From a virus (lineage: Duplodnaviria > Caudoviricetes): a stretch of DNA of 54,959 bases. Numbering within the stretch: position 1 is the first letter of the stretch; every line of letters starts with the position of its first letter. This document shows positions 35,752 to 50,561 of this stretch, one piece after another. Position numbers and translations under genes: made by a program. A model generated the notes under the pieces. That model was not told the origin of the DNA, made no database searches, and worked only from the letters and a program-made list of their open reading frames with translations. Where the stretch lies: IMG/VR virus record IMGVR_UViG_3300032232_001103, positions 1 through 54,959 of that record. One strand, written 5' to 3'.

Positions 35752-37722
35752 TTAGGCGGAGTAAATTAGACGAGTTACACCTGCACCGTAGTTGCTTGTA
35801 ACTTGTGTAAAACCTGTACGCAAGCTAGCAACCATAACGCGACGCTGTGTCTCAACCAATTCTTGTGTGTCGATACGTAGACCACGCTGGTTACCAACAA
35901 CGAAGTTGCCAGGAGCAACGCAAATCGCACCAACGTTAGCAAATGTACTACCAGCTGTTGCGCTAGGATCGTTAAGTTCGCCAGAAACTAGTACTGGTGA
36001 GTTACCGATCTGACCGATTTGGCCAGTAAGTAGTGTAGCAGCAGGACCAACTTGGTTCATTGTCTGGAAAACTGTATCTTCGAGTAGATTGTAGTAAACG
36101 CTGCTGTTAACAATGTAAACTACATCTGCTGGATCTAGACCCCAAACACCTAACTGCTTACGCATATTGCGTAAGTTAGCAACTGTAACAGCTGTTGTAG
36201 TATTAGTAATACCAGTTTGTGTTGAAGCACCAGCAGCACTAGCTAGACCCTTAATAGGATCGCCGGTACCTTCAGCGCCGCGAAGTAGAGCCTTGTCAAC
36301 TGCGCGAGCGATACGACGAATCATACCATCACGAATTACAGGCATAATAGCGATAAGGCTATCTTCTTCTTCTTCGTAAGCTGTATACTCGTTGGTAGCA
36401 ACTTTGTATGCACTGAGAGTAATCTCTTTGAGTGCATGTGTAGCTGTGTTACCAGCGCTTGCACCAGCGGCGCCAAGACTGCCAGGAACAGCACCAAAGT
36501 TAGCGTTATCAACCCAAGTTGCAGTACCTGCTTCTGGATTAACAGGAATACGCATAACGTTTGTTTGCATAGCGATTTGACGGAATAGTGGTGCGACGAC
36601 TAGGCGACGACGAACCTCAGCTTCCATGTTTAGGCTAACTTCTAGTTCCCAAGTAGCGCTTGGTACGTGTGCACCGTACTTTTGAACCATTTCGCGACCA
36701 AACTTGGTGTCTTCAACACCTTTGTTAGCCATGCGAGCAAGTAGAACAGCCTTCTCTTTGTCAGCATAGCTCATTGTGGCTGATGCATTATCAGCAGCAA
36801 ATTGCATACGTGATTTTTGAACAGCCTCAAGTTCAGCAGCTTTTTCTGCTAGTGTAGCTTGTAGACCAGCAATAGCAGACTTGTGTGTTTGCTCTTGTTC
36901 AGCAACACGCTTTTCTACTTCAGCTAGTAGGCGCTCTGCACCTGTATCAACTGTTTGCACTTGTGCAACAGCGGCTTTGATTTTAGCGTCAAGATCAGCT
37001 TGTGCACGATCTTGTGCTGCTTTTTCTACGGCAGCCTGAGCTTGTTGCTCAGCGATAGCTTTTGCTGTTTCAGCAGCAGCTTGCTTAGCTGTGTCAGCTA
37101 GCAATTTTTCCAAATCTTTAGGATCCATGTTCCATTCCTTTGTAGTGTCGCTATTTGCTTCCACGGGGGACTCTAGCCCTTTAGCTGATTCCAACTTGGG
37201 CGCAAATTGCAGTTTGAAAAATTTAAGTTCTTCGTCGGTTTCAAACGACTTAGATAAACTAAATAATGTATTTTGATTAGCAGGTACGGACACTACTGAA
37301 ATTTCATGTAGTTCCAGTTCTTTAACAACAAACAGCTCATTAGCTGCATTATATTCCGCATCAGCGATACGAAAACCAATACTAAAAGCAGTAAGCACTC
37401 CGTCTTTGATAAGATTAAACACTTCGCCTGCTGCTGCAGAAATCCGTGCTTTAATCCACAAACCTTTACTGTCGATTCTATGATCTACCATTCTACCAAT
37501 AGGTTCACTATGGTCATGGTATGCTAGAATTACTGGATTTTTCAAGTAATTTTGCACACCGCTTTTCCATACTGTACTAGGCACAATATCGCCTTGACGA
37601 TCAGTATCGACTGTACTTGCGTAGCCTTCGATCATAATTGAATCAATGCTGATATCTTTGGTAGGTAGAACACTTTTAGTAAATGTACTGGTTAAGGTAA
37701 TTACCTTGTTTTTATCTACCAT
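35752..37722 (-). CDS. Fused prohead protease + scaffold + HK97-fold major capsid protein
   Basis: N-terminal IEGYAST..DRQGD, NPVILAYHDH, FSIGF, EISVVSVPAN (HK97-type protease); Ala/Gln-rich coiled coil; C-terminal capsid domain. Confidence 0.9.
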   Translation of the reverse strand: MVDKNKVITLTSTFTKSVLPTKDISIDSIMIEGYASTVDTDRQGDIVPSTVWKSGVQNYLKNPVILAYHDHSEPIGRMVDHRIDSKGLWIKARISAAAGEVFNLIKDGVLTAFSIGFRIADAEYNAANELFVVKELELHEISVVSVPANQNTLFSLSKSFETDEELKFFKLQFAPKLESAKGLESPVEANSDTTKEWNMDPKDLEKLLADTAKQAAAETAKAIAEQQAQAAVEKAAQDRAQADLDAKIKAAVAQVQTVDTGAERLLAEVEKRVAEQEQTHKSAIAGLQATLAEKAAELEAVQKSRMQFAADNASATMSYADKEKAVLLARMANKGVEDTKFGREMVQKYGAHVPSATWELEVSLNMEAEVRRRLVVAPLFRQIAMQTNVMRIPVNPEAGTATWVDNANFGAVPGSLGAAGASAGNTATHALKEITLSAYKVATNEYTAYEEEEDSLIAIMPVIRDGMIRRIARAVDKALLRGAEGTGDPIKGLASAAGASTQTGITNTTTAVTVANLRNMRKQLGVWGLDPADVVYIVNSSVYYNLLEDTVFQTMNQVGPAATLLTGQIGQIGNSPVLVSGELNDPSATAGSTFANVGAICVAPGNFVVGNQRGLRIDTQELVETQRRVMVASLRTGFTQVTSNYGAGVTRLIYSA

Positions 37723-39353: not shown

Positions 39354-39794
39354 TTACTTTAGTGAGCTACGAAGCATCCACGAATGCTTTTTGTGTGCAT
39401 CCTGGCGATCTGCTAAAAAGTTCGACAAACCATGATCACCAAATTCTTCTGCTACCGCAAATAGTTGCTGAAACTTCATTGCCATGGTATCTGAATCCAT
39501 TAGCAGTTCCTGCAACATACTACGCCAGTCACCAGGCACATTCTCGTCTTGAATGTAAGTTAAGCGACTAAAAGCGCTTAAGCTAGCAGGTGTAGTAATT
39601 TGCAGTGCACGTAGTTCTTCTGCATAAGTGTCAATACTGCCGTAGACTTCTGTGTAAATGCGCTCAAATAATTCGTGTAGTTGACCGAATAGTTGGCCTT
39701 CAACATTCCAGTGAAAATTAGCAGACTTTAAGTAAAAGCTAAACTCACTGGCAAAAACGCGTTGTAGCTCTAGGTAGTATTCAGTTCGGTCCAT
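39354..39794 (-). CDS. dps: Dps/ferritin-like DNA protection protein
   Basis: FHWNVEG..F..LH.LFE.IY.....D..AE.LRAL and KHSWML signatures. Confidence 0.9.
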   Translation of the reverse strand: MDRTEYYLELQRVFASEFSFYLKSANFHWNVEGQLFGQLHELFERIYTEVYGSIDTYAEELRALQITTPASLSAFSRLTYIQDENVPGDWRSMLQELLMDSDTMAMKFQQLFAVAEEFGDHGLSNFLADRQDAHKKHSWMLRSSLK

Positions 39795-39873: not shown

Positions 39874-41163
39874 CTAGATAGTGTAAGTGTACAATGCATA
39901 GCGAATGGCATCGGCCATGTGTGAATATTTGTCGTGGATAGGGCGCTCACGCTGCAAGTTCTCACGATTATCCCAACGATACTGATCCATTACGTCTAAG
40001 ACGTTTGTACAGTGTGGCGCTACTTTTAGCCTGCCAGACTCCACCAATGTCTGCACATAGGCAATGCCTGGTAAGATGTCTTTTTTAGCTTTGGTGGTTG
40101 AGATGTTATAAGTATAGGCAAGGTCACCAGCAAATTGTGCTGCTGCCGAATCAATAAATACTACTTCTACGCCCCAACGATCTAAGTACTCGCGAAATGC
40201 TTCAGCATGTTTGTCTGTGGTAGCCTCACTTTTTAGGTACTCGTCTATGATATGAAATTGATCACTATAAGGATTATAACTGATAACCACAAAAGCAGTA
40301 GCGTCGCGATAGCCTGGATCGCAACCAGCAATGTATTCACATCCTTCTTGGTGTACATAGTCCGAAACTCCCACATCACGACTAAAATTATAGATCTGAC
40401 CCTCAAACACATTAAAGCTGGCTAAGTATTCTTGTTCAAATTCAGCTTTGCTCATCGACCGGCGTGCTTCTTGCACGTCCGACTCCGACATACGCGAATT
40501 TTCAGTATAGTCTGCAGTAATCGAGCACCACTCAGGAAAGTCTGGGCTGTAACCACGTTGGTAGAAACGGCTAAACCAGTTTTGCTGACCGCGGGGAGTG
40601 GAGATAAAAATAGCCTTTGAATTAGGTCTGTCTAGCGTAGGTCTGAGCTGCACATTAAATGCTGACTCACCATCATCGCCTAGTGCAGCCTCGTCAAATA
40701 GGATAATTTGGTAGCTGCGTCCAACTGTACTATCCACTGTGCTCAGCGAGCCCATGCGGATAGTCGAACCATTGCTCAACTCTACTACTTTGTCTTTTAA
40801 GTTATCACGTTCCACTTCTAGGTCAAAGTGTCTGATAAACTTACGCTGCAGTTCAAATGAGATGCTAGATAGGTTGTAGTTTGGTGAAATAATCAACACG
40901 TTGCATTTAGGGACTAGACTTACAAGTTGTGCAATAATATTAGCAATATAGGTTTTGCCTAATCGCCTGGCTAGTGCAGCGCATACAAAGCGGTACTTGG
41001 GATTGTTGATGGCGTTGATTAGTGCGATTTGGGGACGATTCATGGTGTCCCAAGCACCTAGCAGTTTCAAGTAGTTTTCAATAGGCAGTTTAATAAAACG
41101 GTCCTGTACAGGAAACTCTGTAATCTCGTCACGGTCTACATCATCACGCGAAATTTTAAGCAT
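39874..41163 (-). CDS. terL: Terminase large subunit
   Basis: ARRLGKT Walker A, ILFDEAA Walker B, FISTPRG, EFEQEY.A.F, DPGY.D and HMADAIRY nuclease motifs. Confidence 0.95.
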   Translation of the reverse strand: MLKISRDDVDRDEITEFPVQDRFIKLPIENYLKLLGAWDTMNRPQIALINAINNPKYRFVCAALARRLGKTYIANIIAQLVSLVPKCNVLIISPNYNLSSISFELQRKFIRHFDLEVERDNLKDKVVELSNGSTIRMGSLSTVDSTVGRSYQIILFDEAALGDDGESAFNVQLRPTLDRPNSKAIFISTPRGQQNWFSRFYQRGYSPDFPEWCSITADYTENSRMSESDVQEARRSMSKAEFEQEYLASFNVFEGQIYNFSRDVGVSDYVHQEGCEYIAGCDPGYRDATAFVVISYNPYSDQFHIIDEYLKSEATTDKHAEAFREYLDRWGVEVVFIDSAAAQFAGDLAYTYNISTTKAKKDILPGIAYVQTLVESGRLKVAPHCTNVLDVMDQYRWDNRENLQRERPIHDKYSHMADAIRYALYTYTI

Positions 41164-41645
41164 TACAATTTGTCTCCTAAGAGCCGGCTAATAAGGGCTC
41201 CGTACTTGGTACCGTCTCCGCCTTCATTGATTTGCACGTTTACTTGCGATTTAGGTCCTTGACGTTCCGACCGCAGTTTTTCTAACTGAATTTCGCGGTC
41301 TAGTAGTTCCATGCTCATTTTATGTGATAGTGCTAGTAATTCGGCAATGTCTTTGTTTGACCCAACGTCTGCCTCTTCCATTTCCTTGAACTTGCGTTTG
41401 AGCACAGCGTCCATTGCCGACCGCATCTTGAAACGATTGTTAAAGCCTAGGTCAAAGAATACTTGGTTGATATAGCTTTTAACTTCACGGCGACTTAAAA
41501 TCTGTGATACACTTTCAACTGGTAAACACAAATTATCTGCGACCGCTCTAGCGTCTTGGCACTGCAAGTAGCAATTAGCCACCTCTAATGCCTCTGGTGA
41601 AATTTCCAGCACCTCCGCGGGTGCTGTGGTTGGAGTCAGGTTCAT
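41163..41645 (-). CDS. terS: Terminase small subunit (T5-like)
   Basis: 160 aa directly upstream of terL; ISPE.L.VA..YL, REVK.YI...F.D.G.NNR, SNKDI..LL...HKM. Confidence 0.8.
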   Translation of the reverse strand: MNLTPTTAPAEVLEISPEALEVANCYLQCQDARAVADNLCLPVESVSQILSRREVKSYINQVFFDLGFNNRFKMRSAMDAVLKRKFKEMEEADVGSNKDIAELLALSHKMSMELLDREIQLEKLRSERQGPKSQVNVQINEGGDGTKYGALISRLLGDKL

Positions 41646-41962
41646 TTTCGTAACTTTTCTTCTAAGACACTAATACGTTCACGGTTAATGTGGATTTGAT
41701 CGCGATTAACTTGGATCTCCTTTTCAAGATCTTGACGTAGTTTTTCACGAGCTAATTCTGCTCCCGAATTACTAGCCTGCTTATTATCGCTGGTAACTAC
41801 TAGTGAAATTTTGCTGTTTAACACAGTAACATCATGTTGCAGGTTTTGCAGCGCACTCATTAAGTAGACTACGCAGGTGAATAAGAGGGGTAACAGTGCA
41901 AATGTAAGCTTTTCAATAAGTTGGCCCTTGGCATGGGCTTCTTCTAATTTCTGTTCGCTCAT
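41642..41962 (-). CDS. Membrane protein with TM helix and coiled coil
   Basis: LTFALLPLLFTCVVYLM hydrophobic segment; translationally coupled to its neighbours. Confidence 0.65.
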   Translation of the reverse strand: MSEQKLEEAHAKGQLIEKLTFALLPLLFTCVVYLMSALQNLQHDVTVLNSKISLVVTSDNKQASNSGAELAREKLRQDLEKEIQVNRDQIHINRERISVLEEKLRK

Positions 41963-42963
41963 TATATTCTACCTACTAAATTATACTTAAAAATATCCCA
42001 GCATTTTTCCCAAGACCAGCGATAGCTGGCTACCACTACTACGTGTCTAGGAATTGCTAGTGCACGAACCACGGCTAGTTTAAGATCTGGGCTAGTATAT
42101 CCGGTTCTGTCCAGCTCTATTACATCTTGTGGTCCACAAACTGGATAAGCTGCGACCGGAGTACCACACGCCATTGCTTCTAGCATTACAATACCAAAAG
42201 TATCCCAACGGCTGGTAAATACTAGGCAATCTGCTTGCTGGTAATAACTAGCTAAGTCTTTGCCGGTTTTCATACCCACAAACTCCACCTCAGGATACTT
42301 GTTTTGCAAATACTCTAGCTGCGGGCCACTACCTACTACAATCTTTTTAGCTCCTAGGTAGTCCAGCTTACAAAAGTCTTCGCAAGACTTTTCCACCGAC
42401 ACCCTGCCAACCCAGAGCAGTGTAGGATACGTAGTTTCACGACCCACTTCTAGTGGATAAAATTGTTGTCTGTCTACTCCGCGAGTCCAGGGAACTATAG
42501 TTCCAGAAAAGTCGTGCCTTTTAAGTTCGTCTACCATGCTAGTGGTAGTAGCTAATACCTTGCCCGAATGCTTGTGAAACCAACGCAAGTACTTGTACGT
42601 CCAGCTAGTGGGAATTTTATAGTACTTTTTAATAGCTTCTGGCAGTTTGGTATGGTAGCTAGTATTATACCGCCAACCATGTTTATCCATCCAACAACGT
42701 GCAGCTAAGCCCAATGGACCTTCAGTGGCAATGTGTACATAGTCGGGATTTACCCTTTCCAGTATTTCACCAATCCCACGAGGCCACGATAACCTAATAT
42801 CCCCATAGCCAGGAGCACCACAATTAGGGAACTGCCGGGGATCACAATATACAATATCGTAGCCGTGGCTATTTGCTTCGCGTTCCAAGTTGTGGAACGT
42901 TGTAACCACGCCGTTAATTTGCTGGGGCTCATTGTCTGTGACTACTAAGATTTTTTTATGCAT
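41962..42963 (-). CDS. agt: GT4-family glycosyltransferase, Agt-like diacylglycerol glycosyltransferase
   Basis: QINGVV, HIATEGPLGLAAR, TSYHT..PE, WTRGVD, VGRVS.EK, DTFGIV.LEAMACGTPVAA; in the same operon as the PlcP-like gene. Confidence 0.75.
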   Translation of the reverse strand: MHKKILVVTDNEPQQINGVVTTFHNLEREANSHGYDIVYCDPRQFPNCGAPGYGDIRLSWPRGIGEILERVNPDYVHIATEGPLGLAARCWMDKHGWRYNTSYHTKLPEAIKKYYKIPTSWTYKYLRWFHKHSGKVLATTTSMVDELKRHDFSGTIVPWTRGVDRQQFYPLEVGRETTYPTLLWVGRVSVEKSCEDFCKLDYLGAKKIVVGSGPQLEYLQNKYPEVEFVGMKTGKDLASYYQQADCLVFTSRWDTFGIVMLEAMACGTPVAAYPVCGPQDVIELDRTGYTSPDLKLAVVRALAIPRHVVVVASYRWSWEKCWDIFKYNLVGRI

Positions 42964-43118
42964 TGTGAAACTACCTTAAATTGTGGAAACTTAAGCTGCC
43001 AGTCTATAGTACGTTGTGCGGTTATACACTCCGCTTGTGTTTCAAATTCTAAGGTTACACGGCCTGGCACATCCTTAGGGTCCTGTTGGTGTACTGCTAG
43101 GATTATTAACAACCACAT
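42945..43118 (-). CDS. Small hypothetical protein with hydrophobic N-terminus and two Cys
   Basis: MWLLIILAVH...C...C, GGAGG RBS; bridges the plcP-like and agt-like genes with overlaps. Confidence 0.55.
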   Translation of the reverse strand: MWLLIILAVHQQDPKDVPGRVTLEFETQAECITAQRTIDWQLKFPQFKVVSQCIKKS

Positions 43119-43863
43119 CTTTAGGCCTCCAAGTAACAATTTCCCATGTACCGTTTAAATTTTCTACTAGTGCAGTACACGACTCTACCCAATCACCACT
43201 ATTCATGTAACCTACCTCGCCTACCGTTTTAATCTCAGCTTGATGAATGTGTCCACAGATTACGCCAAAAAACTTACGTTTTTCAGCATATTTGGTAATA
43301 GTCTGCTCAAACTTAAATACAAAGTCTACTGCGCGTTTTACCCTGGACTTTAACCACTGCGATAGACTCCAGTAACCAAAGCCTAGTCTATGGCGTAACT
43401 GGTTAAATTGAGTGTTTAAACCTAGAACGAAATCATAGGCACTGTCGCCTAGCCAAGCTAACCAAGGTGCTAGTCTGGTAATACCGTCAAACATATCGCC
43501 GTGTGTAACTAACCAGCGGCGGTTGTTGAGGTCTACGTACTCGCATTGGTTTACTACTTCAATTCTACCAAATTTAAGTCCATAGCTAATTAGTGGCCGT
43601 AGAAATTCATCGTGATTGCCCGCCACGTAAACTACTCTAGTCTTTTCACGATTAGCTTTGGCTAAGACATGACGGACTACATTGGTATGTTGATTAGTCC
43701 AGCGCAGTTTATTTTGCTTGACTTTCCAACCGTCAATAATATCGCCTACTAAGTACAATTCATCACAGGTGTTAGACTTTAAAAATTGGCTTAAGTACTC
43801 AGCTTTACTAGCCTTGGTACCTAAGTGCACGTCCGAAATAAATACGGCGCGGTAGTGTGCCAT
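43075..43863 (-). CDS. plcP: Metallophosphoesterase, PlcP-like phospholipase C (often annotated UDP-2,3-diacylglucosamine hydrolase)
   Basis: FISDVHLG, LVGDIIDGW, GNHDE, HGD.FD, WLA.LGD.AY, GYWSLS, CGHIH, GDWVESCTALVE. Confidence 0.75.
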   Translation of the reverse strand: MAHYRAVFISDVHLGTKASKAEYLSQFLKSNTCDELYLVGDIIDGWKVKQNKLRWTNQHTNVVRHVLAKANREKTRVVYVAGNHDEFLRPLISYGLKFGRIEVVNQCEYVDLNNRRWLVTHGDMFDGITRLAPWLAWLGDSAYDFVLGLNTQFNQLRHRLGFGYWSLSQWLKSRVKRAVDFVFKFEQTITKYAEKRKFFGVICGHIHQAEIKTVGEVGYMNSGDWVESCTALVENLNGTWEIVTWRPKDVVVNNPSSTPTGP

Positions 43864-44015
43864 TATTTGTCACGTTTGTTGTAAAGATCAAATAAACTTT
43901 TTACTTTATCTTCTAAAACTCCTAAACGCATATCTGCTTTGGCAAAAAGCACTACAATCATAATAAAGGCCACAAATACTGGCCAAGCTTTTAACATTAA
44001 CTCGATAATTTCCAT
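43863..44015 (-). CDS. Small membrane protein (50 aa; not in the ORF track)
   Basis: MEIIELMLKAWPVFVAFIMIVVLFAKADMRLGVLEDKVKSLFDLYNKRDK; GGAGG RBS; TAATG coupling to plcP. Confidence 0.75.
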   Translation of the reverse strand: MEIIELMLKAWPVFVAFIMIVVLFAKADMRLGVLEDKVKSLFDLYNKRDK

Positions 44016-44036
44016 GGTCGACCTCCAGTTCACTAG

Positions 44037-44065
44037 AGTATAACACTTTAGGGCTGTAATGTCAA
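44037..44065 (-). promoter_or_regulatory. sigma70 promoter heading the leftward late operon
   Basis: Minus strand TTGACA-17 bp-TATACT with TG extension. Confidence 0.75.
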
Positions 44066-44298: not shown

Positions 44299-44495
44299 CT
44301 GGCTTTGGCTTTGGCTTTGGCACCGAAAGTTTTGTGGAAAAAATTATAATGTTGGCCGTGTGGCGGGGTCCATATAGTTATATTTATTATAATGTCAACT
44401 AACCCCCTATCACAATTTTTTGGGCCGCGTCAACCCCTGGTGCAAAAATACAACATAGGGATATACCCTGCGACAAAATGTCGCGGAATTTGCGC

Positions 44496-44524
44496 TTGCA
44501 TTGTGTGCTTGACTAGCCTATAAT
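44496..44524 (+). promoter_or_regulatory. Pre-early sigma70 promoter
   Basis: TTGCAT-17 bp-TATAAT upstream of AAGGAG RBS and 44560 ATG. Confidence 0.75.
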
Positions 44525-44559
44525 TACTACATCGAAACAGCACTCACAAGGAGAGCGCA

Positions 44560-44886
44560 ATGGCAGAAAAAGCCGTAAACTATAGCCCTGAGCAAACCGC
44601 TCAGGTAATCGCGGATTATACCGCTGGTGTCAGCGTGGAAAGCATTGCATTGGCAATGGGTAAATCCGTTCGCTCAATCGTTGCTAAACTGTCACGCGAA
44701 GGCGTGTATCAGAAAAAAGCATACAAAACCAAAACGGGTGAACCCGTTGTAAAGAAGGATGCCCATGCCGATGCAATCGGCGCAATCCTTCGCTTGCCTG
44801 AGAACGATATCGAATCGTTGACTAAGGCTAATAAGAGCGCGCTTAAGGCGATCTTTGAAGCATTGGCTAATTCCAAGCCGATTTAA
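44560..44886 (+). CDS. A2: T5 A2/D3-family small DNA-binding protein, paralog 1
   Basis: NY..EQT, KSVRSI.AKLSREGVY.K, IESL.KA.K..L pattern recalled from T5 A2/D3; pre-early context. Confidence 0.65.
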   Translation: MAEKAVNYSPEQTAQVIADYTAGVSVESIALAMGKSVRSIVAKLSREGVYQKKAYKTKTGEPVVKKDAHADAIGAILRLPENDIESLTKANKSALKAIFEALANSKPI

Positions 44887-44910
44887 ATAAAGGGCGAAAG
44901 CCCTTTATTT
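44885..44910. terminator. Intrinsic terminator
   Basis: AAATAAAGGGC-GAAA-GCCCTTTATTT perfect hairpin. Confidence 0.85.
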
Positions 44911-45064
44911 ATCTTATAACGACCCGCGGTGTTGCGAAAAAACAACAGCGCGGGCGCCAAAATTATAGCATATAATTTTGGGCCGTGTCAAGGCCGCGTG
45001 CAAAAATACAACACTAGGGAAAACCCCTAGGCTTGGCCGCCGAATCCTATGCTATACTAACGTC

Positions 45065-45427
45065 ATGAATAAAGCACAACTCACCCAAGCACTGCAAGCC
45101 CGCCTCGATGAGGTATGGGGTATCTATTGCGACATTAATATTCAATTAATTCGCTTTGCTAAACCCACTATTGAATTAAACGGCAGACTTAGTAAAACGG
45201 CTGGACGCTGTTTTATGCAAGCCAATCATATTGATATTGGCACTAAGTTTTTAATCGCGCACTATGATCAGATCATGACGGAAACTGTACCGCATGAAAT
45301 CGCGCATCAAATTGACTATAACCTTAACGGCAATCCTGCCGGTAATCGTTGGCATGGCCCATCATGGCAACGCATTATGCGTCAATTGGGCGTTAATCCC
45401 GAAACTTATCACGATATGGTGGTTTGA
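45065..45427 (+). CDS. SprT-like zinc metalloprotease
   Basis: RL..TAGR, VPHEIAH, HGPSWQ.IM..LG; start at ATG 45065. Confidence 0.85.
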   Translation: MNKAQLTQALQARLDEVWGIYCDINIQLIRFAKPTIELNGRLSKTAGRCFMQANHIDIGTKFLIAHYDQIMTETVPHEIAHQIDYNLNGNPAGNRWHGPSWQRIMRQLGVNPETYHDMVV

Positions 45428-45634
45428 ATGTTAGCATGGATTGGCACAATTGCCAGCATAGCCGGATCTTTCCTTGTTGCATTAGGCGTAATGAATTGGG
45501 GATATATATGCTTTATTACCGGCACAATATCTTGGCTAATAATTGCAATAGCGCGCAGGGATAGGGCATTAGGCGTATTAAATGGGGCATTCTTAATTGC
45601 CAATGTAATTGGCATTGTTCGTTATGTAATTTAA
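45428..45634 (+). CDS. Small integral membrane protein (~3 TM)
   Basis: 68 aa, almost entirely hydrophobic; WIGT..SI.GSFLVA. Confidence 0.7.
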   Translation: MLAWIGTIASIAGSFLVALGVMNWGYICFITGTISWLIIAIARRDRALGVLNGAFLIANVIGIVRYVI

Positions 45635-45820
45635 TATGGCCAGGTGTTGTATTTTTACAACACGCTGGCGCCAAATTATAGCATATAATTTGGGCCCGTG
45701 TCAACCCCCTGGGCGAAAATACCACACTAGGGGAAACCCTGCGACAACGTGTCGCACCTTGGGCACTTGCACAATCTACAAAACCCTGTATAATACTCTA
45801 CATGAACCGGAGCGAGACAA

Positions 45821-45991
45821 ATGGCAACTAAACTACACTTGGTGTTGGCAATGAAAAAAGCCAGCAAACCCGATGCTAGGGCACATAAGCCCTTGTTTGT
45901 GAATAGCCCATTTAAGCCACAGGTTATTCCCAATAAAAAGAAAATGAAATTGGCTAAACTGTTTAATGGTTGGGGATTTGGCGATGAATAA
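45821..45991 (+). CDS. Small basic protein (56 aa; not in the ORF track)
   Basis: MATKLHLVLAMKKASKPDARAHKPLFVNSPFKPQVIPNKKKMKLAKLFNGWGFGDE; GGAG RBS; promoter TTGCAC-16-TATAAT at 45767-45794. Confidence 0.65.
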   Translation: MATKLHLVLAMKKASKPDARAHKPLFVNSPFKPQVIPNKKKMKLAKLFNGWGFGDE

Positions 45992-46181
45992 ATTCAAATT
46001 GATTGAGGAAGCGGCAAAATTCGAAACGTCGCAATTAAAACGCGATGAATTGATTTATTTTGTAGAATCTGTTAAAATGTACGAAATGATGGAATTAGAT
46101 TATGAGGCTTTAGTAACGCGGATTAACCGTACTGCTAAACACTTGTTGGATGTTAAACAATTTTTTAATGAAGGGGAATAA
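45984..46181 (+). CDS. Hypothetical protein
   Basis: MNKFKLIEE..., GGGA RBS, coupled to the upstream ORF. Confidence 0.6.
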   Translation: MNKFKLIEEAAKFETSQLKRDELIYFVESVKMYEMMELDYEALVTRINRTAKHLLDVKQFFNEGE

Positions 46182-46182
46182 T

Positions 46183-46365
46183 ATGATGTACATGGCAAAA
46201 TCCATTAATGACGATACCATTACCTCAATGGGCGAAAGCGTTCAAGAAGTTTGGGAGGATTTGCAATTCGGTTTTGAATTGACTGATGCAGATTTTGATG
46301 ATTTGCAATGGTTTGAAGTTGAACCAATTAAGGTAACTCGCAAATTGGAATTCGTTATTGAATAA
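46183..46365 (+). CDS. Small acidic hypothetical protein
   Basis: MMYMAKSINDD..., AAGGGG RBS. Confidence 0.65.
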   Translation: MMYMAKSINDDTITSMGESVQEVWEDLQFGFELTDADFDDLQWFEVEPIKVTRKLEFVIE

Positions 46366-46590
46366 ATAACAAGCCAGGGTGTTGTAAATTTACAACACCC
46401 GTGGCGCCAATTTTACCAGTAAAATTGGGCCCGTGTCAAGCAAAATTTGAAAAATTTTTGTTGTATTTATACAACGCTTGACGCGCCAAAATTATACACC
46501 AGCCTGGGCCGGTTGTCAATAGGGGAAAACCCCTATGTTGTATTTTTACAAATTTGCGCACAACCCGATTTTTCGTGTATAATTCTCTAC

Positions 46591-47094
46591 ATGGACACAA
46601 CGCAAGCAAACAAGATGATCAAACGGATCGCAATTTATGACATGGACGGGACTATCGTGGATTCCAGCCACCGTTACCGGACTATTCTCACCGATCAAGG
46701 TGAGCGCATTGATATTGGTTATTGGCGCGATAACCAACATTTGGCAATGTTGGATGGCCTATTGCCATTGGCTGAAAAATATAAACTCGATTGCATGGAT
46801 TTGGAATGTTTCACGATTATCGCTACTGCGCGTGTAATGAATGATCCAGATTGGCAATTTATGCGCGATCAATTGGGTATGCCAGATTATGTTATCTCGC
46901 GCACTCGTGACGATCAACAGTCGGGTTCCACGCTAAAGATTAACGGATTGATTAAATGCTTCGAAACTGCTAATATTAACTTGGCAATGATGACTGATGT
47001 TGTTTTCTATGAAGACAATGTAGATTACCTTAAAGCGGTATGCGATTATTTTAATATTCGCGGTGAATATATTCCAAGTAAACAAGGACACTAA
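46591..47094 (+). CDS. dmp: HAD-family deoxynucleoside-5'-monophosphatase (T5 Dmp-like)
   Basis: IYDMDGTIVDS.HR, D.LLPL, IIATARVM, FYEDN motifs; start 46591 or 46615; promoter -10 TATAAT at 46578. Confidence 0.8.
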   Translation: MDTTQANKMIKRIAIYDMDGTIVDSSHRYRTILTDQGERIDIGYWRDNQHLAMLDGLLPLAEKYKLDCMDLECFTIIATARVMNDPDWQFMRDQLGMPDYVISRTRDDQQSGSTLKINGLIKCFETANINLAMMTDVVFYEDNVDYLKAVCDYFNIRGEYIPSKQGH

Positions 47095-47095
47095 A

Positions 47096-47191
47096 ATGAC
47101 TAACGGAAACGATCCAGACAAAATTGTTTTTTATGCGCTGATTGCCAGCGTTTGTGCGGTTGCTTATCTTGTCTTTACCGGAGCGGTATAA
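47096..47191 (+). CDS. Small single-TM protein (31 aa; not in the ORF track)
   Basis: MTNGNDPDKIVFYALIASVCAVAYLVFTGAV; AAGGA RBS; TAATG coupling to the next gene. Confidence 0.6.
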   Translation: MTNGNDPDKIVFYALIASVCAVAYLVFTGAV

Positions 47192-47556
47192 TGAAAGCAT
47201 GGAATGAATTAACCCAATTGGAACAATTGGCAATAACCCATTGGGATCTTTATAAAGATGCACATAATGTGCGTCCTCGTTGGCTTGATACTAGCCAATG
47301 GACTGAATCCGATTTTGAATTGGCAATCGCTGAATTGTACACTATTTGCGATCGCAATGAGCGTATGCGTAATGCTGATGAAGCGGCCGCATTTGAAATT
47401 GTAAAAACGCGCATTGCCGCATTGCAAGAAATGCATGGTTTTGATTGGGCTGAAGCCGTTAATTGGTTGCACGCTGAATATGAGACTCAGGGCGATCAGG
47501 GTTATTTAGAGTTTCAATTGGGCATTGCATACGGTGCTCTTACCTTAAAGGATTGA
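47191..47556 (+). CDS. Hypothetical phage protein
   Basis: MKAWNELTQLEQ...WDLYKDAHNVRPR; GGAG RBS. Confidence 0.7.
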   Translation: MKAWNELTQLEQLAITHWDLYKDAHNVRPRWLDTSQWTESDFELAIAELYTICDRNERMRNADEAAAFEIVKTRIAALQEMHGFDWAEAVNWLHAEYETQGDQGYLEFQLGIAYGALTLKD

Positions 47557-47765
47557 TCATGGATTTTTTAAATTATGACATTCTGGATTGTTGTGGTGCT
47601 TATGGCCGCAAGGCTACATGGGACGATTGGGTTAATGGCCTAGACTTTAAAATTATTGATGGCCCGTACTTTAGCATTAAAGATTGCAATAAATTAAGCC
47701 AGGAATATGATGAATTGCATTTTCGCTCTGCAATGGGCGTTGAATTCCGGGTGTATTTAAAATAA
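47553..47765 (+). CDS. Hypothetical phage protein
   Basis: AYGR....DDW.NG.DFKI..GPYFSI motif; AAGGA RBS. Confidence 0.65.
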   Translation: MIMDFLNYDILDCCGAYGRKATWDDWVNGLDFKIIDGPYFSIKDCNKLSQEYDELHFRSAMGVEFRVYLK

Positions 47766-48027
47766 ATAACGAAATGTGTTGTATTTTTACAACACATGGC
47801 GCCAATTTTACCATGTAAAATTGGGCCGTGTCAAGAAAAATTTTGTAAATTTTTCGTGCTGTTGTATTTATACAACAGCTGACGCGCCAAAATTTTACCA
47901 CCAAAAAATTTTTTTGTCAATAGGGGAAAACCCCTATGTTGTATTTTTACAAATTTGTGGGTGGTGGCTGTTTTTGTGTTATTATGTGTTCTGGGCGTTG
48001 TGCCCTGGGTTCACACTATTATTTATC

Positions 48028-48729
48028 ATGGCCAAAAAACAGTTTTTCGCAATTCTTGATACTGAAACTACTTGCAATGATACTGTTGCAGATTTTGCAA
48101 TTGTTATTTGTGATCGTAACGGTCGCGTTTATCATAAATGCGCGGTATTGGTTCGCAATCATTTTGATTCAATGGATTTATTCTATGACAAAACAAAACA
48201 AGTCGGTGAAATGTGGTCGCGTGAATACGCAAGCAAAAAGCAAACCCAATACTTTGCAATGCTTGATTCAGGTTCGCGGCAATTGGCGTCTGTTGCCGCA
48301 ATCAATGCGTGGATTCAAAAAGCCATTGGCAAATACAACCCTACATTAACCGCTTATAATCTGGCATTTGATAAAAACAAATGTGCCAATACCGGAATTG
48401 ATCTTTCGGGTTTTGCTGAATCGTTTTGCCTTTGGCAAGCGGCAATTGGCAATATTTGCAAAAAACAATATCGTCAATTTGCATTAGACAATCATTTGTT
48501 TAATGCTCCGACTAAACACGGCAATATGTCCATTAAAACTACTGCTGAATCTGTTTTTGCGTTTTTAAATGGCCAATTTGTTGCAGAACCGCATACTGCA
48601 TTAGAAGATGCACAAGACTTTGAATTGCCAATTCTGGTAAACATTCTGAAAAAACGCAATTGGCGTGACAATATCATTGCACACGATTGGAAAAAGTTTC
48701 AAGTAAAAGATTTTTACAAGGCAATCTAA
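48028..48729 (+). CDS. DEDDh 3'-5' exonuclease
   Basis: ILDTETT (ExoI), AYNLAFD (ExoII), HTALEDA (ExoIII); true start ATG 48028. Confidence 0.85.
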   Translation: MAKKQFFAILDTETTCNDTVADFAIVICDRNGRVYHKCAVLVRNHFDSMDLFYDKTKQVGEMWSREYASKKQTQYFAMLDSGSRQLASVAAINAWIQKAIGKYNPTLTAYNLAFDKNKCANTGIDLSGFAESFCLWQAAIGNICKKQYRQFALDNHLFNAPTKHGNMSIKTTAESVFAFLNGQFVAEPHTALEDAQDFELPILVNILKKRNWRDNIIAHDWKKFQVKDFYKAI

Positions 48730-48730
48730 A

Positions 48731-49072
48731 ATGGAAAATTTAGCATATTATATTAAATTCTTGGGGCTGAAAAGCCCCGTAGAATTAACGCTTAAAACCA
48801 AATCCAATAAACATTCGGATGCAGTTTATTGGCCTAAATTTTCCAATAAAGGTAATTTAAAAGCGCATAAAATTACTGTATTCCTGGGCAATCAAACCCC
48901 TAATTCTCGGCGTTCATTGGATGAATTGATCGCGCACGAATTAATTCATGCTTGGCAACAAGAAAACAATATAGCCGAATTTCACGGACTTAATTTTATT
49001 CTGCTTGCAATTCAAATGAGCGACGAATTTAATTTGCCTAATATTTACCTTGCTGACTTAGACGACGAATAA
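48731..49072 (+). CDS. SprT-like/zincin metalloprotease
   Basis: LIAHELIHAWQ......FHG..F. Confidence 0.7.
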   Translation: MENLAYYIKFLGLKSPVELTLKTKSNKHSDAVYWPKFSNKGNLKAHKITVFLGNQTPNSRRSLDELIAHELIHAWQQENNIAEFHGLNFILLAIQMSDEFNLPNIYLADLDDE

Positions 49073-49079
49073 TTTGCAC

Positions 49080-49108
49080 TTGATTAACCCATCCCAACCC
49101 TGTATAAT
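49080..49108 (+). promoter_or_regulatory. sigma70 promoter
   Basis: TTGATT-17 bp-TATAAT upstream of GGAG RBS and 49133 ATG. Confidence 0.75.
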
Positions 49109-49132
49109 ATTAACTTAACTGGAGAAAACGCA

Positions 49133-49459
49133 ATGGCTGAAAAAACTGTAAACTACACCCCAGAGCAAACCCTGAATTTGATTGCCGATTACAAAAACGG
49201 TTTTACCGTTGAAGAATTGGCTTTGCAAATGGGCAAATCGGTTCGCTCAATTGTTGCTAAACTCTCGCGCGAGGGAGTTTACGAAAAGAAAACCTATAAA
49301 ACAAAAACCGGCGAGGCAGTTGTTAAAAAAGACGCGCACGCTGATGCAATTGGCGCAATTCTCCGATTGCCAGAAAACGACATTGAATCCCTGACCAAAT
49401 GCAATAAATCTGCATTAAAAGCAATTTTCGACGCATTGGCTAATTCAAAACCCATTTAA
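49133..49459 (+). CDS. A2: T5 A2/D3-family DNA-binding protein, paralog 2
   Basis: 91/108 aa identical to 44560..44886 by manual comparison. Confidence 0.65.
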   Translation: MAEKTVNYTPEQTLNLIADYKNGFTVEELALQMGKSVRSIVAKLSREGVYEKKTYKTKTGEAVVKKDAHADAIGAILRLPENDIESLTKCNKSALKAIFDALANSKPI

Positions 49460-49470
49460 TTGGGCGTTTA

Positions 49471-49499
49471 ATAAAACCGGCAATTGCCGGTTTTATTTT
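49471..49499. terminator. Intrinsic terminator
   Basis: ATAAAACCGGC-AATT-GCCGGTTTTATTTT. Confidence 0.8.
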
Positions 49500-49736
49500 A
49501 TGTAAATCGTTTTAAAAAATATAATCATTATATTTTTTAAAACGGCGCCAATTATACTAGTATAATTGGGAGCGTGTCAAGCGTTTTGCAAAAATACAAC
49601 ATAGGGACAAACCCTTAGAGTCGTTATAAATTTTGGAACCATGTGGCGCCAAAATTATACCATAATTTTGCGGCCCGTGTCAAGAGGATGTGCAAAAATA
49701 CAACATAGGGACAAACCCTAATAGGGTAAACCCTGA

Positions 49737-49854
49737 GCACCGGCCAGGTGCGCACCACTTTGGTGCATGCACCGTTCTGGGGCGCACCAAGTTGGTGCAT
49801 GCACTACTTTGGTGCAGCCATGCACCAGCATGGTGCAGAGGTAGGTACCTCTGC
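49737..49854. repeat. Tandem array of six 15-bp palindromes GCACC-N5-GGTGC
   Basis: Copies start at 49737, 49752, 49769, 49784, 49801, 49822; followed by palindrome GCAGAGGTA-GG-TACCTCTGC. Confidence 0.9.
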
Positions 49855-50023
49855 GCCAGTGCGAAATCTAGTGCAAATTCTTGCAGGTCCTACCGCGCCG
49901 ATTATACAGTGCTAAAGCTATCCGTGTCAAGTCAATTTTTCTGGGCCTCCAACCCGCAAAAATTTACAGTTGAGCGAGCCTGCCGAAGTCTGTATAATAT
50001 TATTTATAGACAGTAGGGAACCA

Positions 50024-50137
50024 ATGAAAGATTACCAAGAATGGCTTGAGGATTGGCGCGACGAGCATTTCGACTATCCACAGTATCCAGACCAGCAGCC
50101 AGACCCCAGTAATTTTGATCTTGATATTGACAACTGA
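50024..50137 (+). CDS. Small acidic protein (37 aa; not in the ORF track)
   Basis: MKDYQEWLEDWRDEHFDYPQYPDQQPDPSNFDLDIDN; promoter TTGAGC-17-TATAAT (49970-49998) and AGGG RBS. Confidence 0.55.
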   Translation: MKDYQEWLEDWRDEHFDYPQYPDQQPDPSNFDLDIDN

Positions 50138-50189
50138 ACACTGTATAATAGAATCTTCAACAGCGCAGAAACCGAAACACAAAGGACAT

Positions 50190-50501
50190 ATGATGACTGA
50201 CAAAACTGTAAACTACACCCCAGAGCAAACCGCTACCATTATCGGCCTGTACACCACGGGTAACTCTGTGGAGATGATCGCCGAGCAGGTTGGCAAATCG
50301 GTGCGGTCGATTGTGGCAAAACTCTCCCGTGAGGGAGTGTACATCCCTAAGACCGCGGCTAAGGGTCAGGGCCGGGTTACTAAAAGTGATTTGGTTACCA
50401 AACTGGCCGAGCATTTTAGTATTGATGCTGCTGAGCTTGTAAGCTTTGAAAAAGCCAGCTTTGCCGCACTAGAGTTGCTGGCCAGCAAACTCAAGGCATA
50501 A
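50190..50501 (+). CDS. T5 A2/D3-family DNA-binding protein, paralog 3
   Basis: KTVNYTPEQT...GKSVRSIVAKLSREGVY; AAGGA RBS; promoter TTGATA-17-TATAAT at 50121-50149. Confidence 0.7.
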   Translation: MMTDKTVNYTPEQTATIIGLYTTGNSVEMIAEQVGKSVRSIVAKLSREGVYIPKTAAKGQGRVTKSDLVTKLAEHFSIDAAELVSFEKASFAALELLASKLKA

Positions 50502-50526
50502 GCTCCAGGGGAGAAGAAATTTAATC

Positions 50527-50555
50527 TTGATTCTTCTCCCCAAACCCTGTATAAT
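50527..50555 (+). promoter_or_regulatory. sigma70 promoter for the putative large ncRNA
   Basis: TTGATT-17 bp-TATAAT; overlaps the GGGGAGAAGAA/TTCTTCTCCCC hairpin. Confidence 0.8.
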
Positions 50556-50561
50556 ATTATT

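Follow-up and report, generated by a model that had tools for sequence, protein, structure and literature searches.

Do a metallophosphoesterase (MPE) and a GT4 glycosyltransferase, carried by an uncultured T5-like freshwater phage directly upstream of its terminase genes, form a phage-borne version of the PlcP-Agt lipid-renovation pathway of bacteria, and what would a phage gain from it? In small aquatic bacteria, phospholipids hold a large store of phosphorus, which phage DNA synthesis needs in quantity. Judged from its sequence, the cassette is a real and probably functional auxiliary module of the PlcP-Agt type with a predicted biochemistry. We consider it likely that it is the phage counterpart of the bacterial pathway, with substrates, products, timing and a benefit to the phage that we infer. 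A literature search found no paper on a PlcP-Agt cassette in phages.

The window (the whole stretch of DNA that was analysed, 54,959 nt) represents half of a genome. The cassette lies on its minus strand in the order tm50, MPE, sp57, GT4 and p106, directly upstream of terS and terL (Table 1). All five cassette ORFs overlap or abut behind a single sigma-70-like promoter: the tm50 stop and the MPE start have 1 nt in common, the MPE gene runs 44 nt into sp57, sp57 runs 19 nt into GT4 and GT4 runs 1 nt into p106, and the series continues with overlaps of 4 nt between p106 and terS and 1 nt between terS and terL. The tight coupling ahead of the terminase genes that a sequence-only reading of this DNA had described is thus borne out by these overlaps of 1–44 nt and by the PHROGs matches of terS and terL. 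The nearest cultured relatives by terL are Vibrio phages of 113–118 kb (~50% identity), with phages of Salmonella and Escherichia making up the other most frequent matches. The same reading had placed the cassette where T5 has its receptor genes, and this position agrees with T5, in which the gene immediately upstream of terS is pb5 (oad), with llp divergent from it.

Table 1 Features of the cassette and the adjoining terminase genes (positions in the window)
Feature	Position	Strand	Basis or remark
Sigma-70-like promoter, TTGACA-17-TATACT with extended TG	44037..44065	-	11/12 consensus positions; directly upstream of the operon; putative function
tm50, 50 aa, one hydrophobic helix	43863..44015	-	likely start ATG 44015 behind GGAGG, favoured over GTG 44033 of the ORF list
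PlcP-like MPE, 262 aa, predicted membrane-phospholipid phospholipase C	43075..43863	-	family kinship, motifs, fold
sp57, 57 aa, virus-specific	42945..43118	-	ATG 43118 behind GGAGG; overlaps MPE 3' end and GT4 5' end
Agt-like GT4, 333 aa, predicted diacylglycerol glycosyltransferase	41962..42963	-	Pfam domains, Agt1 identity, motifs
p106, 106 aa, one hydrophobic helix and charged helical-looking tail	41642..41962	-	between GT4 and terS
terS, terminase small subunit (context)	41163..41645	-	PHROGs phrog_3802, E 1.2e-37
terL, terminase large subunit (context)	39874..41163	-	PHROGs phrog_2, E 2.9e-41

The MPE matches the Pfam Metallophos family (E 5.5e-12). It is 51.7% identical to PlcP of P. aeruginosa, whose gene precedes a glycosyltransferase and an adenylate cyclase gene, and 46.1% identical to PlcP of S. 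meliloti, whose gene adjoins LuxR and AHL-synthase genes. We take these homologues to be PA3219 (of the PA3219/PA3218 locus) and SMc00171, respectively, going by species, synteny and gene numbers. The two PlcPs are 47% identical to each other (46% according to Jones et al.), and in full-length identity the phage enzyme is as near to these two characterised proteins as they are to one another. The motifs that the sequence-only reading had quoted for both enzymes are present in the translations: GNHDE at residues 82–86, WLAWLGDSAY at 134–143, GYWSLS at 163–168 and GDWVESCTAL at 223–232 of the MPE, and HIATEGPLG at 77–85 and YHT at 103–105 of the GT4. GNHDEFLR, LGDxAY, YWSLS, GDWVESCTA and ICGHIH are common to the MPE and both PlcPs and are missing in E. 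coli LpxH, and the metal-binding motifs of the MPE (D11, H13, G40-D41, G82-N83-H84-D85, H121, G204-H205 and H207) are invariant in 69 of 69 aligned sequences.

The GT4 carries GT-B/GT4 domains in Pfam (Glyco_trans_1_4, Glycos_transf_1 and Glyco_transf_4) and shares 40% identity with P. aeruginosa Agt1 over 324 residues (E 8e-78). According to published work, Agt1 expressed in E. coli yields MGDG and is 41% identical to the Agt of MED193. The catalytic dyad is kept in the phage protein, where H104 and D254, the latter in DTFG, align with the same residues of Agt1. Agt of SAR11 HTCC7211 (GTcp) has a His104-Asp256 dyad in which Asp replaces the Glu of other GT4s, the UDP-sugar motifs GRVAXEKN and FPSXTDTFG, and the diacylglycerol (DAG)-contact residues Thr162, Arg163 and Trp320 (PMC8231724). 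The phage GT4 has GRVSVEKS (186–193) and FTSRWDTFG (249–257), with two substitutions each, outside the mutated positions, and its T160, R161 and W318 stand at an offset of 2 from the GTcp DAG-contact residues, a match by numbering only. Compared by motif and published numbering, not by alignment, T160-R161, W318, G82, G85, E262 and both sugar motifs correspond to SAR11 Agt residues whose mutation abolished activity. Among the NCBIfam equivalogs the GT4 reached no cut-off (best 55 bits against 480).

Both enzymes are under strong purifying selection, with dN/dS of about 0.1 (0.06–0.11 for the MPE and 0.08–0.17 for the GT4, against 9 relatives). Such intact, selected copies of both enzymes suggest that the phage probably remodels the host membrane and may thereby free phosphorus for phage DNA.

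Membrane-type hydrophobic stretches are found in the translations of only two of the three small ORFs, tm50 and p106. The description of the small proteins as membrane-type therefore holds for tm50 and p106 and fails for the interleaved sp57, which is predicted to be a compact soluble beta-beta-alpha-beta domain (pLDDT 92). tm50 is 87–98% conserved in 12 of 15 close relatives, is skipped by some metagenome contigs and has no family match in Pfam or PHROGs; p106 is variable among relatives and precisely skipped in one metagenome contig. For sp57, searches of Pfam, PHROGs and NCBIfam returned no match, and none of 48,161 PDB representatives reached Z 8 (best Z 7.0, PurS); the predicted fold is a common small alpha/beta arrangement, which assigns no family. 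sp57 is absent from all 54 bacterial loci examined, and neither the small ORF after the MPE gene of Pelagibacter phage Mosig nor the basic 43–45-aa ORFs in the same place in four further loci (L032, L041, L050 and L081) align with it. The predicted MPE-sp57 complex scored 0.07 (mark 0.32), which speaks neither for nor against an interaction.

The sequence-only reading had proposed looking for the pair across viral genomes, and it recurs there. In IMG/VR, 194 of 198 pattern-matched stretches encode a relative, and a glycosyltransferase directly follows the MPE in 71 of the best 80 related loci, a GT4 in 44 and an unrelated GT2, which received no specific name from NCBIfam, in 27. The replacement of the GT4 by a non-homologous GT2 in viral loci argues for a coupled reaction. 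Hallmark phage genes occur in 3 of 10 non-T5-like loci, viewed as 12-kb slices, and the viral assignment of the remainder is the IMG/VR classification. A GT4 is also directly downstream of the MPE in 45 of the best 54 bacterial loci. Matches were present in 124 of 401 Pseudomonadota genomes, none of those sampled exceeding 55% identity. Homologues at ~65% identity carry the names of 'Betaproteobacteria bacterium' MAGs, which may stand for hosts or for phage contigs caught in the binning. No cultured phage matched the cassette in Megablast, and a pattern scan of genome contigs yielded only 6 loci, as the patterns used are suited to close relatives. In a quick-search tree, rooted on a very long LpxH branch (length 10), the 67 viral MPE rows form one clade (SH-aLRT 98) that is sister to, and not within, a 60-row bacterial clade holding both characterised PlcPs; the row of phage Mosig and two bacterial rows fall outside these two clades.

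The best Pho-box match upstream of the cassette has 6 mismatches within 460 nt, and over the whole window such matches are no more frequent than by chance, as many being found in 84 of 100 shuffled sequences. The sigma-70-like promoter and the lack of a Pho box suggest that the operon is probably switched on by infection itself and not by phosphate starvation of the host. Among the relatives, 7 of 77 upstream windows hold Pho-box-like sites (≤3 mismatches) compared to 19 of 1540 control windows, pstS is present in 11 of the best 80 IMG/VR loci and also adjoins the MPE homologue of phage Mosig, and the MPE is linked to porins as well. In this half-genome of 55 kb pstS was not found, and the phosphate motive here rests on relatives.

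In the mechanism that we propose, the MPE would act in the cytoplasm, peripheral to the membrane, as a PlcP-family phospholipase C with an LpxH-type fold and would remove the phospho-head group from host glycerophospholipids to leave DAG. The GT4 would act as an Agt-type retaining glycosyltransferase that uses a UDP-sugar to attach a hexose or hexuronate to DAG, and the product, a phosphorus-free glycolipid, would keep the bilayer intact. The freed phospho-head groups would enter the host phosphate pool and could feed phage DNA synthesis.

The same two reactions might serve another aim, namely that the changed inner-membrane lipids alter the envelope, with superinfection exclusion, a changed function of receptors or transporters in the membrane, protection from membrane-acting defences or a shift in lysis timing as possible effects, rather than harvest phosphorus. 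The constitutive-looking promoter, the lack of a Pho box and the absence of pstS from the half-genome would fit this explanation, as would the small membrane ORFs flanking the cassette and its location exactly at the place of T5 pb5, where the receptor-blocking llp is divergent; in P. aeruginosa, moreover, the lipid swap alters membrane protein content and polymyxin tolerance, according to the published account. However, a location in a variable slot says little about function, each of the small ORFs is dispensable among close relatives, and the MPE of relatives is tied to pstS, porins and Pho-box-like sites. We regard an envelope function as unlikely.

That the enzymes act on something other than lipid appears improbable. 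The MPE could then be a phosphodiesterase of nucleotides or cyclic nucleotides, such as one directed against host signalling defences, and the GT4 could glycosylate protein, DNA or a small molecule. The best PHROGs matches of the MPE are indeed generic phosphoesterases and exonucleases, the GT4 has a sub-threshold Pfam GT4-conflict match (22.8 bits against 26), and among solved GT4 structures its sequence comes closest to a tetrahydrobiopterin glucosyltransferase (E 1.4e-11). These matches are generic and at the level of domains, whereas the full-length identities of 46–52% and 40% to lipid-active enzymes are far stronger, and the predicted MPE model shows a helical lid that is characteristic of LpxH-group enzymes, which bind lipid.

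LpxH itself shares much of the predicted MPE architecture. The AF2 model (pLDDT 85) is a lipid-directed MPE fold with a calcineurin-like two-metal core and an inserted helical lid of the LpxH type, and LpxH entries fill its best 23 Foldseek rows (E 1e-10 to 2e-8, TM 0.47–0.55, 15–19% identity). In sequence the two differ. The MPE stays under both NCBIfam LpxH equivalog cut-offs (NF003743, 46.6 bits against 134; TIGR01854, 32.2 against 190.35), and a six-frame LpxH profile search of the record reached 43.6 bits. Identity to E. coli LpxH is 22–25% and confined to the N-terminal half (25% over 124 residues), PDB LpxH sequences match at E ~0.008, and the GNHD in place of GNRD to which the sequence-only reading had pointed is visible in the alignments with E. 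coli and PDB LpxH. Rather than clustering with LpxH or with a non-lipid GT4, the MPE lies far from LpxH and close to the PlcPs, and the GT4 is related to Agt1. It is thus very improbable that the pair comprises an LpxH-type UDP-2,3-diacylglucosamine hydrolase and an LPS or cell-wall glycosyltransferase with which the phage modifies lipid A or LPS, as the JGI and NCBI names of homologues ('LpxH', 'UDP-2,3-diacylglucosamine diphosphatase', 'glycosyltransferase involved in cell wall biosynthesis'), the top of the fold search and viral AMG lists, which place 'lpxH' under LPS biosynthesis, would have it, given the profile scores and confined identity above, the LpxH branch length of 10 in the tree, the PlcP-type lid and C-terminal motifs and a partner gene product that matches Agt1.

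Returning to lipid renovation, a broader proposal can be made, which we offer tentatively. PlcP with a swappable glycosyltransferase may be a long-held, phage-owned module and not a recent pick-up from a host, one that passes between T5-like, T4-like and very large freshwater phages, has its own virus-specific 57-aa partner and is here uncoupled from the host Pho regulon, such that infection turns the phospholipid membrane of the host into a phosphorus reserve for virion DNA. If so, viral phosphorus mobilisation would be widespread and is now filed in surveys as 'lpxH / LPS biosynthesis'. If phages do convert this lipid store during infection, viral auxiliary metabolism would extend to membrane lipids, the glycolipid signals of phosphorus-poor waters could be partly virus-driven, and the 'lpxH' entries of viral gene catalogues would need re-reading.

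Among known systems, the closest are the bacterial PlcP-Agt operons, such as the 'type 2' layout of Sebastian et al. (PMC4796936), PA3219-PA3218 of P. aeruginosa (PMC8528852), BCAL2364-2365 of B. cenocepacia (PMC13691135) and the Agt (GTcp) example of SAR11 HTCC7211 (PMC8231724). As in these, the MPE precedes the GT4 on one strand, and the phage pair keeps the family motifs, metal ligands and His/Asp dyad, with the DAG-contact residues matched by numbering. In contrast to them, the cassette is phage-carried and belongs to an IMG/VR clade sister to the sampled bacterial one, has neither Pho box nor dagK, and holds the extra virus-specific sp57 gene between its enzymes. The pb5 (oad)/llp locus of T5 occupies the corresponding place, immediately upstream of terS and with a divergent promoter region, but has no sequence relation to the cassette, which is enzymatic where the T5 genes are receptor-binding or receptor-blocking. 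Phosphate-stress genes such as pstS are carried by T4-like cyanophages and pelagiphages, and the cassette resembles them in that MPE relatives stand beside pstS and a subset lies behind Pho-box-like sites; it differs in that pstS and a Pho box were not found in its 55 kb and in that it would draw on phosphorus stored inside the cell, in the membrane lipid, instead of on phosphate uptake.

The 54,959-bp record, estimated by CheckV to be ~51% complete and with no tRNA genes along its length, carries a siphovirus structural module recognised with PHROGs. Its TerL has 113–118 kb Vibrio phages as nearest cultured relatives (~50% identity), the other commonest matches being Salmonella and Escherichia phages; none of the 1,286 matched records exceeded 60% identity. 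The order portal, small ORF, terL, terS, variable slot and divergent promoters is shared with T5, as the sequence-only reading had held in placing a PlcP-Agt-like lipid-remodelling cassette in the T5 slot beside terS. On the TerL relatives and this gene order we treat the window as T5-like with half of the genome present. Between terL and the portal-side genes is a Dps/ferritin-like gene that is kept in relatives and in a sister lineage (counterpart at 7395–7907 of IMG/VR locus L023); T5 has an endonuclease at that place. One ORF of 656 aa has hits to the head maturation protease family and to that of the major head protein alike, and may be a protease-capsid fusion or two genes called as one. 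Family matches of a 2,334-aa ORF are trivial only, and G+C in its region (6000–12000) is 0.28, compared with 0.35–0.45 elsewhere in the window.

The cassette pairs a metallophosphoesterase (MPE, 262 aa) with a GT4 glycosyltransferase (333 aa), accompanied by the small ORFs tm50, sp57 and p106 (50, 57 and 106 aa). Each gene overlaps the next by 1 to 44 nt, which bears out the proposed tight coupling ahead of terS/terL, and the MPE and GT4 motifs quoted from the sequence were all located in the translations. The listed starts of tm50 and sp57 are upstream GTG/TTG codons, that of tm50 (GTG) falling within the promoter discriminator; an ATG lies 6–7 nt after GGAGG in both and is more likely the true start. 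Cassette G+C (0.43) equals that of the flanks, so the cassette is not a compositional island.

Features of the cassette and its surroundings in the window
Feature	Position	Strand	Remark
Sigma-70-like promoter	44065–44037	minus	TTGACA-17-TATACT with TG
tm50	43863–44015	minus	
MPE	43075–43863	minus	
sp57	42945–43118	minus	
GT4	41962–42963	minus	
p106	41642–41962	minus	
terS, then terL		minus	downstream of p106
Structural module		minus	portal, prohead protease/major head fusion, adaptor, tail terminator, major tail protein
Structural module, rest		minus	2,538-aa tape measure, fibres
Dps/ferritin-like gene	39354–39794		
656-aa ORF	35752–37722		
2,334-aa ORF	5800–12804		
Early-type region	44380–50560	plus	repeated intergenic element families between genes
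phrog_1725-type copy 1	44560–44886		
phrog_1725-type copy 2	49133–49459		
phrog_1725-type copy 3	~50193–50501		
Exact 44-nt repeat	46513 and 47914		

The repeat families of the early-type region comprise a 39-nt unit (six copies) that contains a hairpin and, on the opposite strand, a TTGACA box, a TGTTGTATTTxTACAACA palindrome (four to six copies) and a promoter-like unit TTGA...TGTATAATA (five copies). The same region holds three paralogues of a small DNA-binding-type gene (phrog_1725/D5-like regulator), copies 1 and 2 of which share 71% DNA identity over 300 nt.

The MPE had been assigned to PlcP, the phospholipase C that yields diacylglycerol (DAG), rather than to LpxH, and scores, identities and motifs uphold this. 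As an LpxH it is rejected: it scored 46.6 bits against the NCBIfam equivalog NF003743 (cut-off 134) and 32.2 bits against TIGR01854 (cut-off 190), PDB LpxH sequences matched it only at E ~0.008, and it shares 25% identity with the first 124 residues of E. coli LpxH; clustering with LpxH was not seen. The named PlcP references were two mislabelled chromosomal pieces in PLSDB. In that of P. aeruginosa the MPE is followed by a glycosyltransferase and a convergent adenylate cyclase, and we take the locus to be PA3219/PA3218; in that of S. meliloti, presumably SMc00171, the MPE adjoins a LuxR-type regulator and an AHL synthase (species and synteny were observed). These two PlcPs are 47% identical, which agrees with the gene assignments, as Jones et al. 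give 46% for the same pair. The window MPE is 51.7% identical to the P. aeruginosa protein and 46.1% to that of S. meliloti. The motifs DGW, GNHDE(F/M)LR, LGDxAY, YWS(L/F)S, ICGHIH and GDWVES(C/R)TA are common to the window MPE, both PlcPs and the protein of the cultured Pelagibacter phage Mosig, and in the five-way alignment E. coli LpxH has none of the six. The calcineurin-like metal ligands are all invariant among 69 sequences. In the AF2 model (pLDDT 85; helical insertion at 124–195) strand 1 begins the chain, leaving no N-terminal signal or membrane helix. The best 23 rows from Foldseek were LpxH structures without exception (E 1e-10 to 2e-8; TM about 0.5, 15–19% identity), and the predicted fold is that of the lipid-binding branch of the superfamily.

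The GT4 likewise proved Agt-like, that is, similar to DAG glycosyltransferases. Over 324 residues it shares 40% identity with Agt1, the P. aeruginosa glycosyltransferase encoded after PlcP; Agt1 by itself is reported to let E. coli make MGDG and to be 41% identical to MED193 Agt. For SAR11 Agt, Wei et al. (PMC8231724) mapped by mutagenesis a His104-Asp256 dyad (D256E causing >90% activity loss), the motifs GRVAXEKN and FPSXTDTFG, a donor site of G16, G82, G85, R190, K195, T257, F258, G259 and E264, and DAG contacts by T162, R163 and W320. The window GT4 has H104, G82, G85, E262, T160-R161 and W318, together with GRVSVEKS at 186–193 and FTSRWDTFG at 249–257 with D254, all matched by motif and near-identical numbering, not by alignment. 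It reached none of the NCBIfam equivalog cut-offs (best 55 bits versus 480), and the solved structures closest to it in sequence are those of unrelated GT4s.

Between the window and 9 of 15 close relatives, dN/dS is 0.06–0.11 for MPE and 0.08–0.17 for GT4; for sp57 it is 0.13–0.28 (five relatives with sp57). Contigs from four runs of four studies, two of the runs labelled freshwater, cover 30, 29, 30 and 29 of 30 cassette bins at 85% likeness or more. In contigs of metagenome runs X5 and X7, position 42947 is linked to 43120 through 17 nt of other sequence, an exact omission of sp57. One X5 contig omits p106 (41644 to 41968) and one X5 contig omits tm50 (43842 to 44033; the short side is only 21). 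Among the 15 close IMG/VR relatives, sp57 is present in five and absent from ten, tm50 is missed in three and p106 in one. MPE and GT4 make up the core that stays constant; each small ORF is optional.

Twenty sp57 sequences align gap-free over 57 residues, with W2, D16, P18, C31, K43, F44, F47 and C53 invariant. Because it is found beside GT4 (17 loci) and GT2 (four) in 21 of the best 80 viral loci, sp57 goes with MPE and not with one glycosyltransferase. Its AF2 model (pLDDT 92) is a beta-beta-alpha-beta domain whose hydrophobic N-terminal end forms a strand rather than a membrane helix; of the small membrane-type proteins said to be interleaved in the cassette, tm50 and p106 have a hydrophobic stretch of that kind and sp57 does not. 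No structural relative stood out in the structure search, and in the ESM Atlas sp57 falls in unnamed clusters, and the two with recorded taxa are 95–96% viral. Our guess is that sp57 might be a regulator or adaptor of MPE.

Only five cultured phage records match MPE. Mosig is the best of them (42.7%), its gene running divergently from one of pstS type; cultured phages gave only remote matches to GT4 (30% or less). In IMG/VR, 194 of 198 pattern-matched stretches encode a relative, and the best 80 were analysed. Fifteen (L008–L022) are the window's own group, with MPE at 83–91% identity and the cassette adjoining terS/terL; L023, L024 and L026 form a sister T5-like lineage, L023 having the order terS, 168-aa ORF, MPE, GT2, class II aldolase-like gene, terL. 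In this survey of viral genomes, which the sequence-only reading had proposed, GT4 follows MPE in 44 of the 80, a GT2/GT21-type gene in 27 and neither in nine. The GT2/GT21-type protein (~236 aa; L037, L041, L053, L063, L069 and 22 more) is unrelated to GT4 and stands in its place; in L041 genes for ketoacyl synthase and fatty-acid desaturase come next, and in L069 a class 3 lipase is encoded close by. In some loci RimK-like or GATase-like genes are inserted: a RimK-type ATP-grasp gene directly follows MPE in L027, L043, L045 and L046 (then GT4) and L031 (then GT2), and a GATase/BPL_N-like gene takes that position in L042 and L044. In L058, of a T4-like contig group, MPE (5989–6741) sits alone between the large and small RNR subunit genes with no glycosyltransferase. 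The small gene p106 also travels with the region; homologues (58–77% identity) lie no more than a few kb upstream of MPE in T4-like L067, L069, L070 and L072. A hallmark scan covered 149 ORFs in 10 loci, chosen for full length and tree spread out of the 62 non-T5-like ones. Three of the 10 have T4-type genes (RegA, clamp loader, family B polymerase, RNase H, SegE, RNR). The 12-kb slices of the other seven contain no hallmark phage genes; they carry chaperone, Fe-S, lipid or transport genes, and their viral status is that given by the IMG/VR classification.

Trees were built from the 80 most window-like viral rows and a thin bacterial sample from one phylum. In the MPE tree (131 distinct rows, 16 identical duplicates of 145 extracted having been merged; quick search, LG+C20, SH-aLRT support only), all 67 IMG/VR rows group with the window in a single clade (support 98). 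Its sister is a clade of 60 bacterial rows (support 96), among them both named PlcPs and the five from Bacteroidota. Outside these two clades fall Mosig and two further bacterial rows, and the LpxH branch has length 10. The GT4 tree (81 rows, three dropped for length; LG+G4, quick) splits 38 viral from 43 bacterial rows including Agt1 with support 76, and 37 of the 38 viral rows group with support 99. Homologues of ~65% identity carry the name 'Betaproteobacteria bacterium' and could come from a lineage of cellular donors or from phage DNA caught in binning.

Pho boxes were scored with the consensus printed by Jones et al. The best match window-wide had three mismatches, a score equalled in 84 of 100 shuffles; in the 460 nt 5' of MPE the best had six, and the window has no pstS. 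With up to three mismatches allowed, 7 of the 77 upstream windows of viral loci have a site, versus 19 of 1,540 controls. In several T4-like loci a CTGTAAC-N4-CTGTAAC-type repeat stands 25–36 nt 5' of the start, and pstS lies within 11 of the 80 best loci. The Pho-box-like sites in relatives tie the MPE family to phosphate stress in some phages; the window lineage instead appears, from its upstream sequence, to use the near-consensus sigma-70 promoter. By analogy with the early promoters of T5, this promoter suggests that the cassette may be expressed early and unconditionally by host polymerase.

The cassette is a real, intact and selected PlcP-Agt-type unit in a T5-like freshwater phage. Its best-supported reading, which we hold to be probable, is lipid-swap biochemistry; phosphorus supply and envelope change are candidate benefits in the window lineage. 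A literature search, with ~1.7 million PMC articles and most subscription journals outside it, found no paper naming PlcP together with auxiliary metabolism and, among the papers listed, no description of a phage-borne PlcP/glycosyltransferase gene. Viral AMG lists in eight papers enter 'lpxH' by name under LPS biosynthesis.

In bacteria, MPE matches occur in 107 of 301 genomes of an alphaproteobacterial MAG's class (E 1e-20 or better; one of the 107, G242, is flagged unpublished) and in 124 of the 401 from its phylum (E 1e-30 or better), none exceeding 55% identity in the class and phylum sets sampled. Among the 54 best-matching loci, taken with 1.5-kb flanks only, sp57 is found in none, and a GT4 homologue (33–46% identity) lies directly 3' of MPE on the same strand in 45. 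This bacterial layout is the 'type 2' plcP-agt layout of Sebastian et al., and also that of the published plcP-agt-dagK operon of B. cenocepacia.
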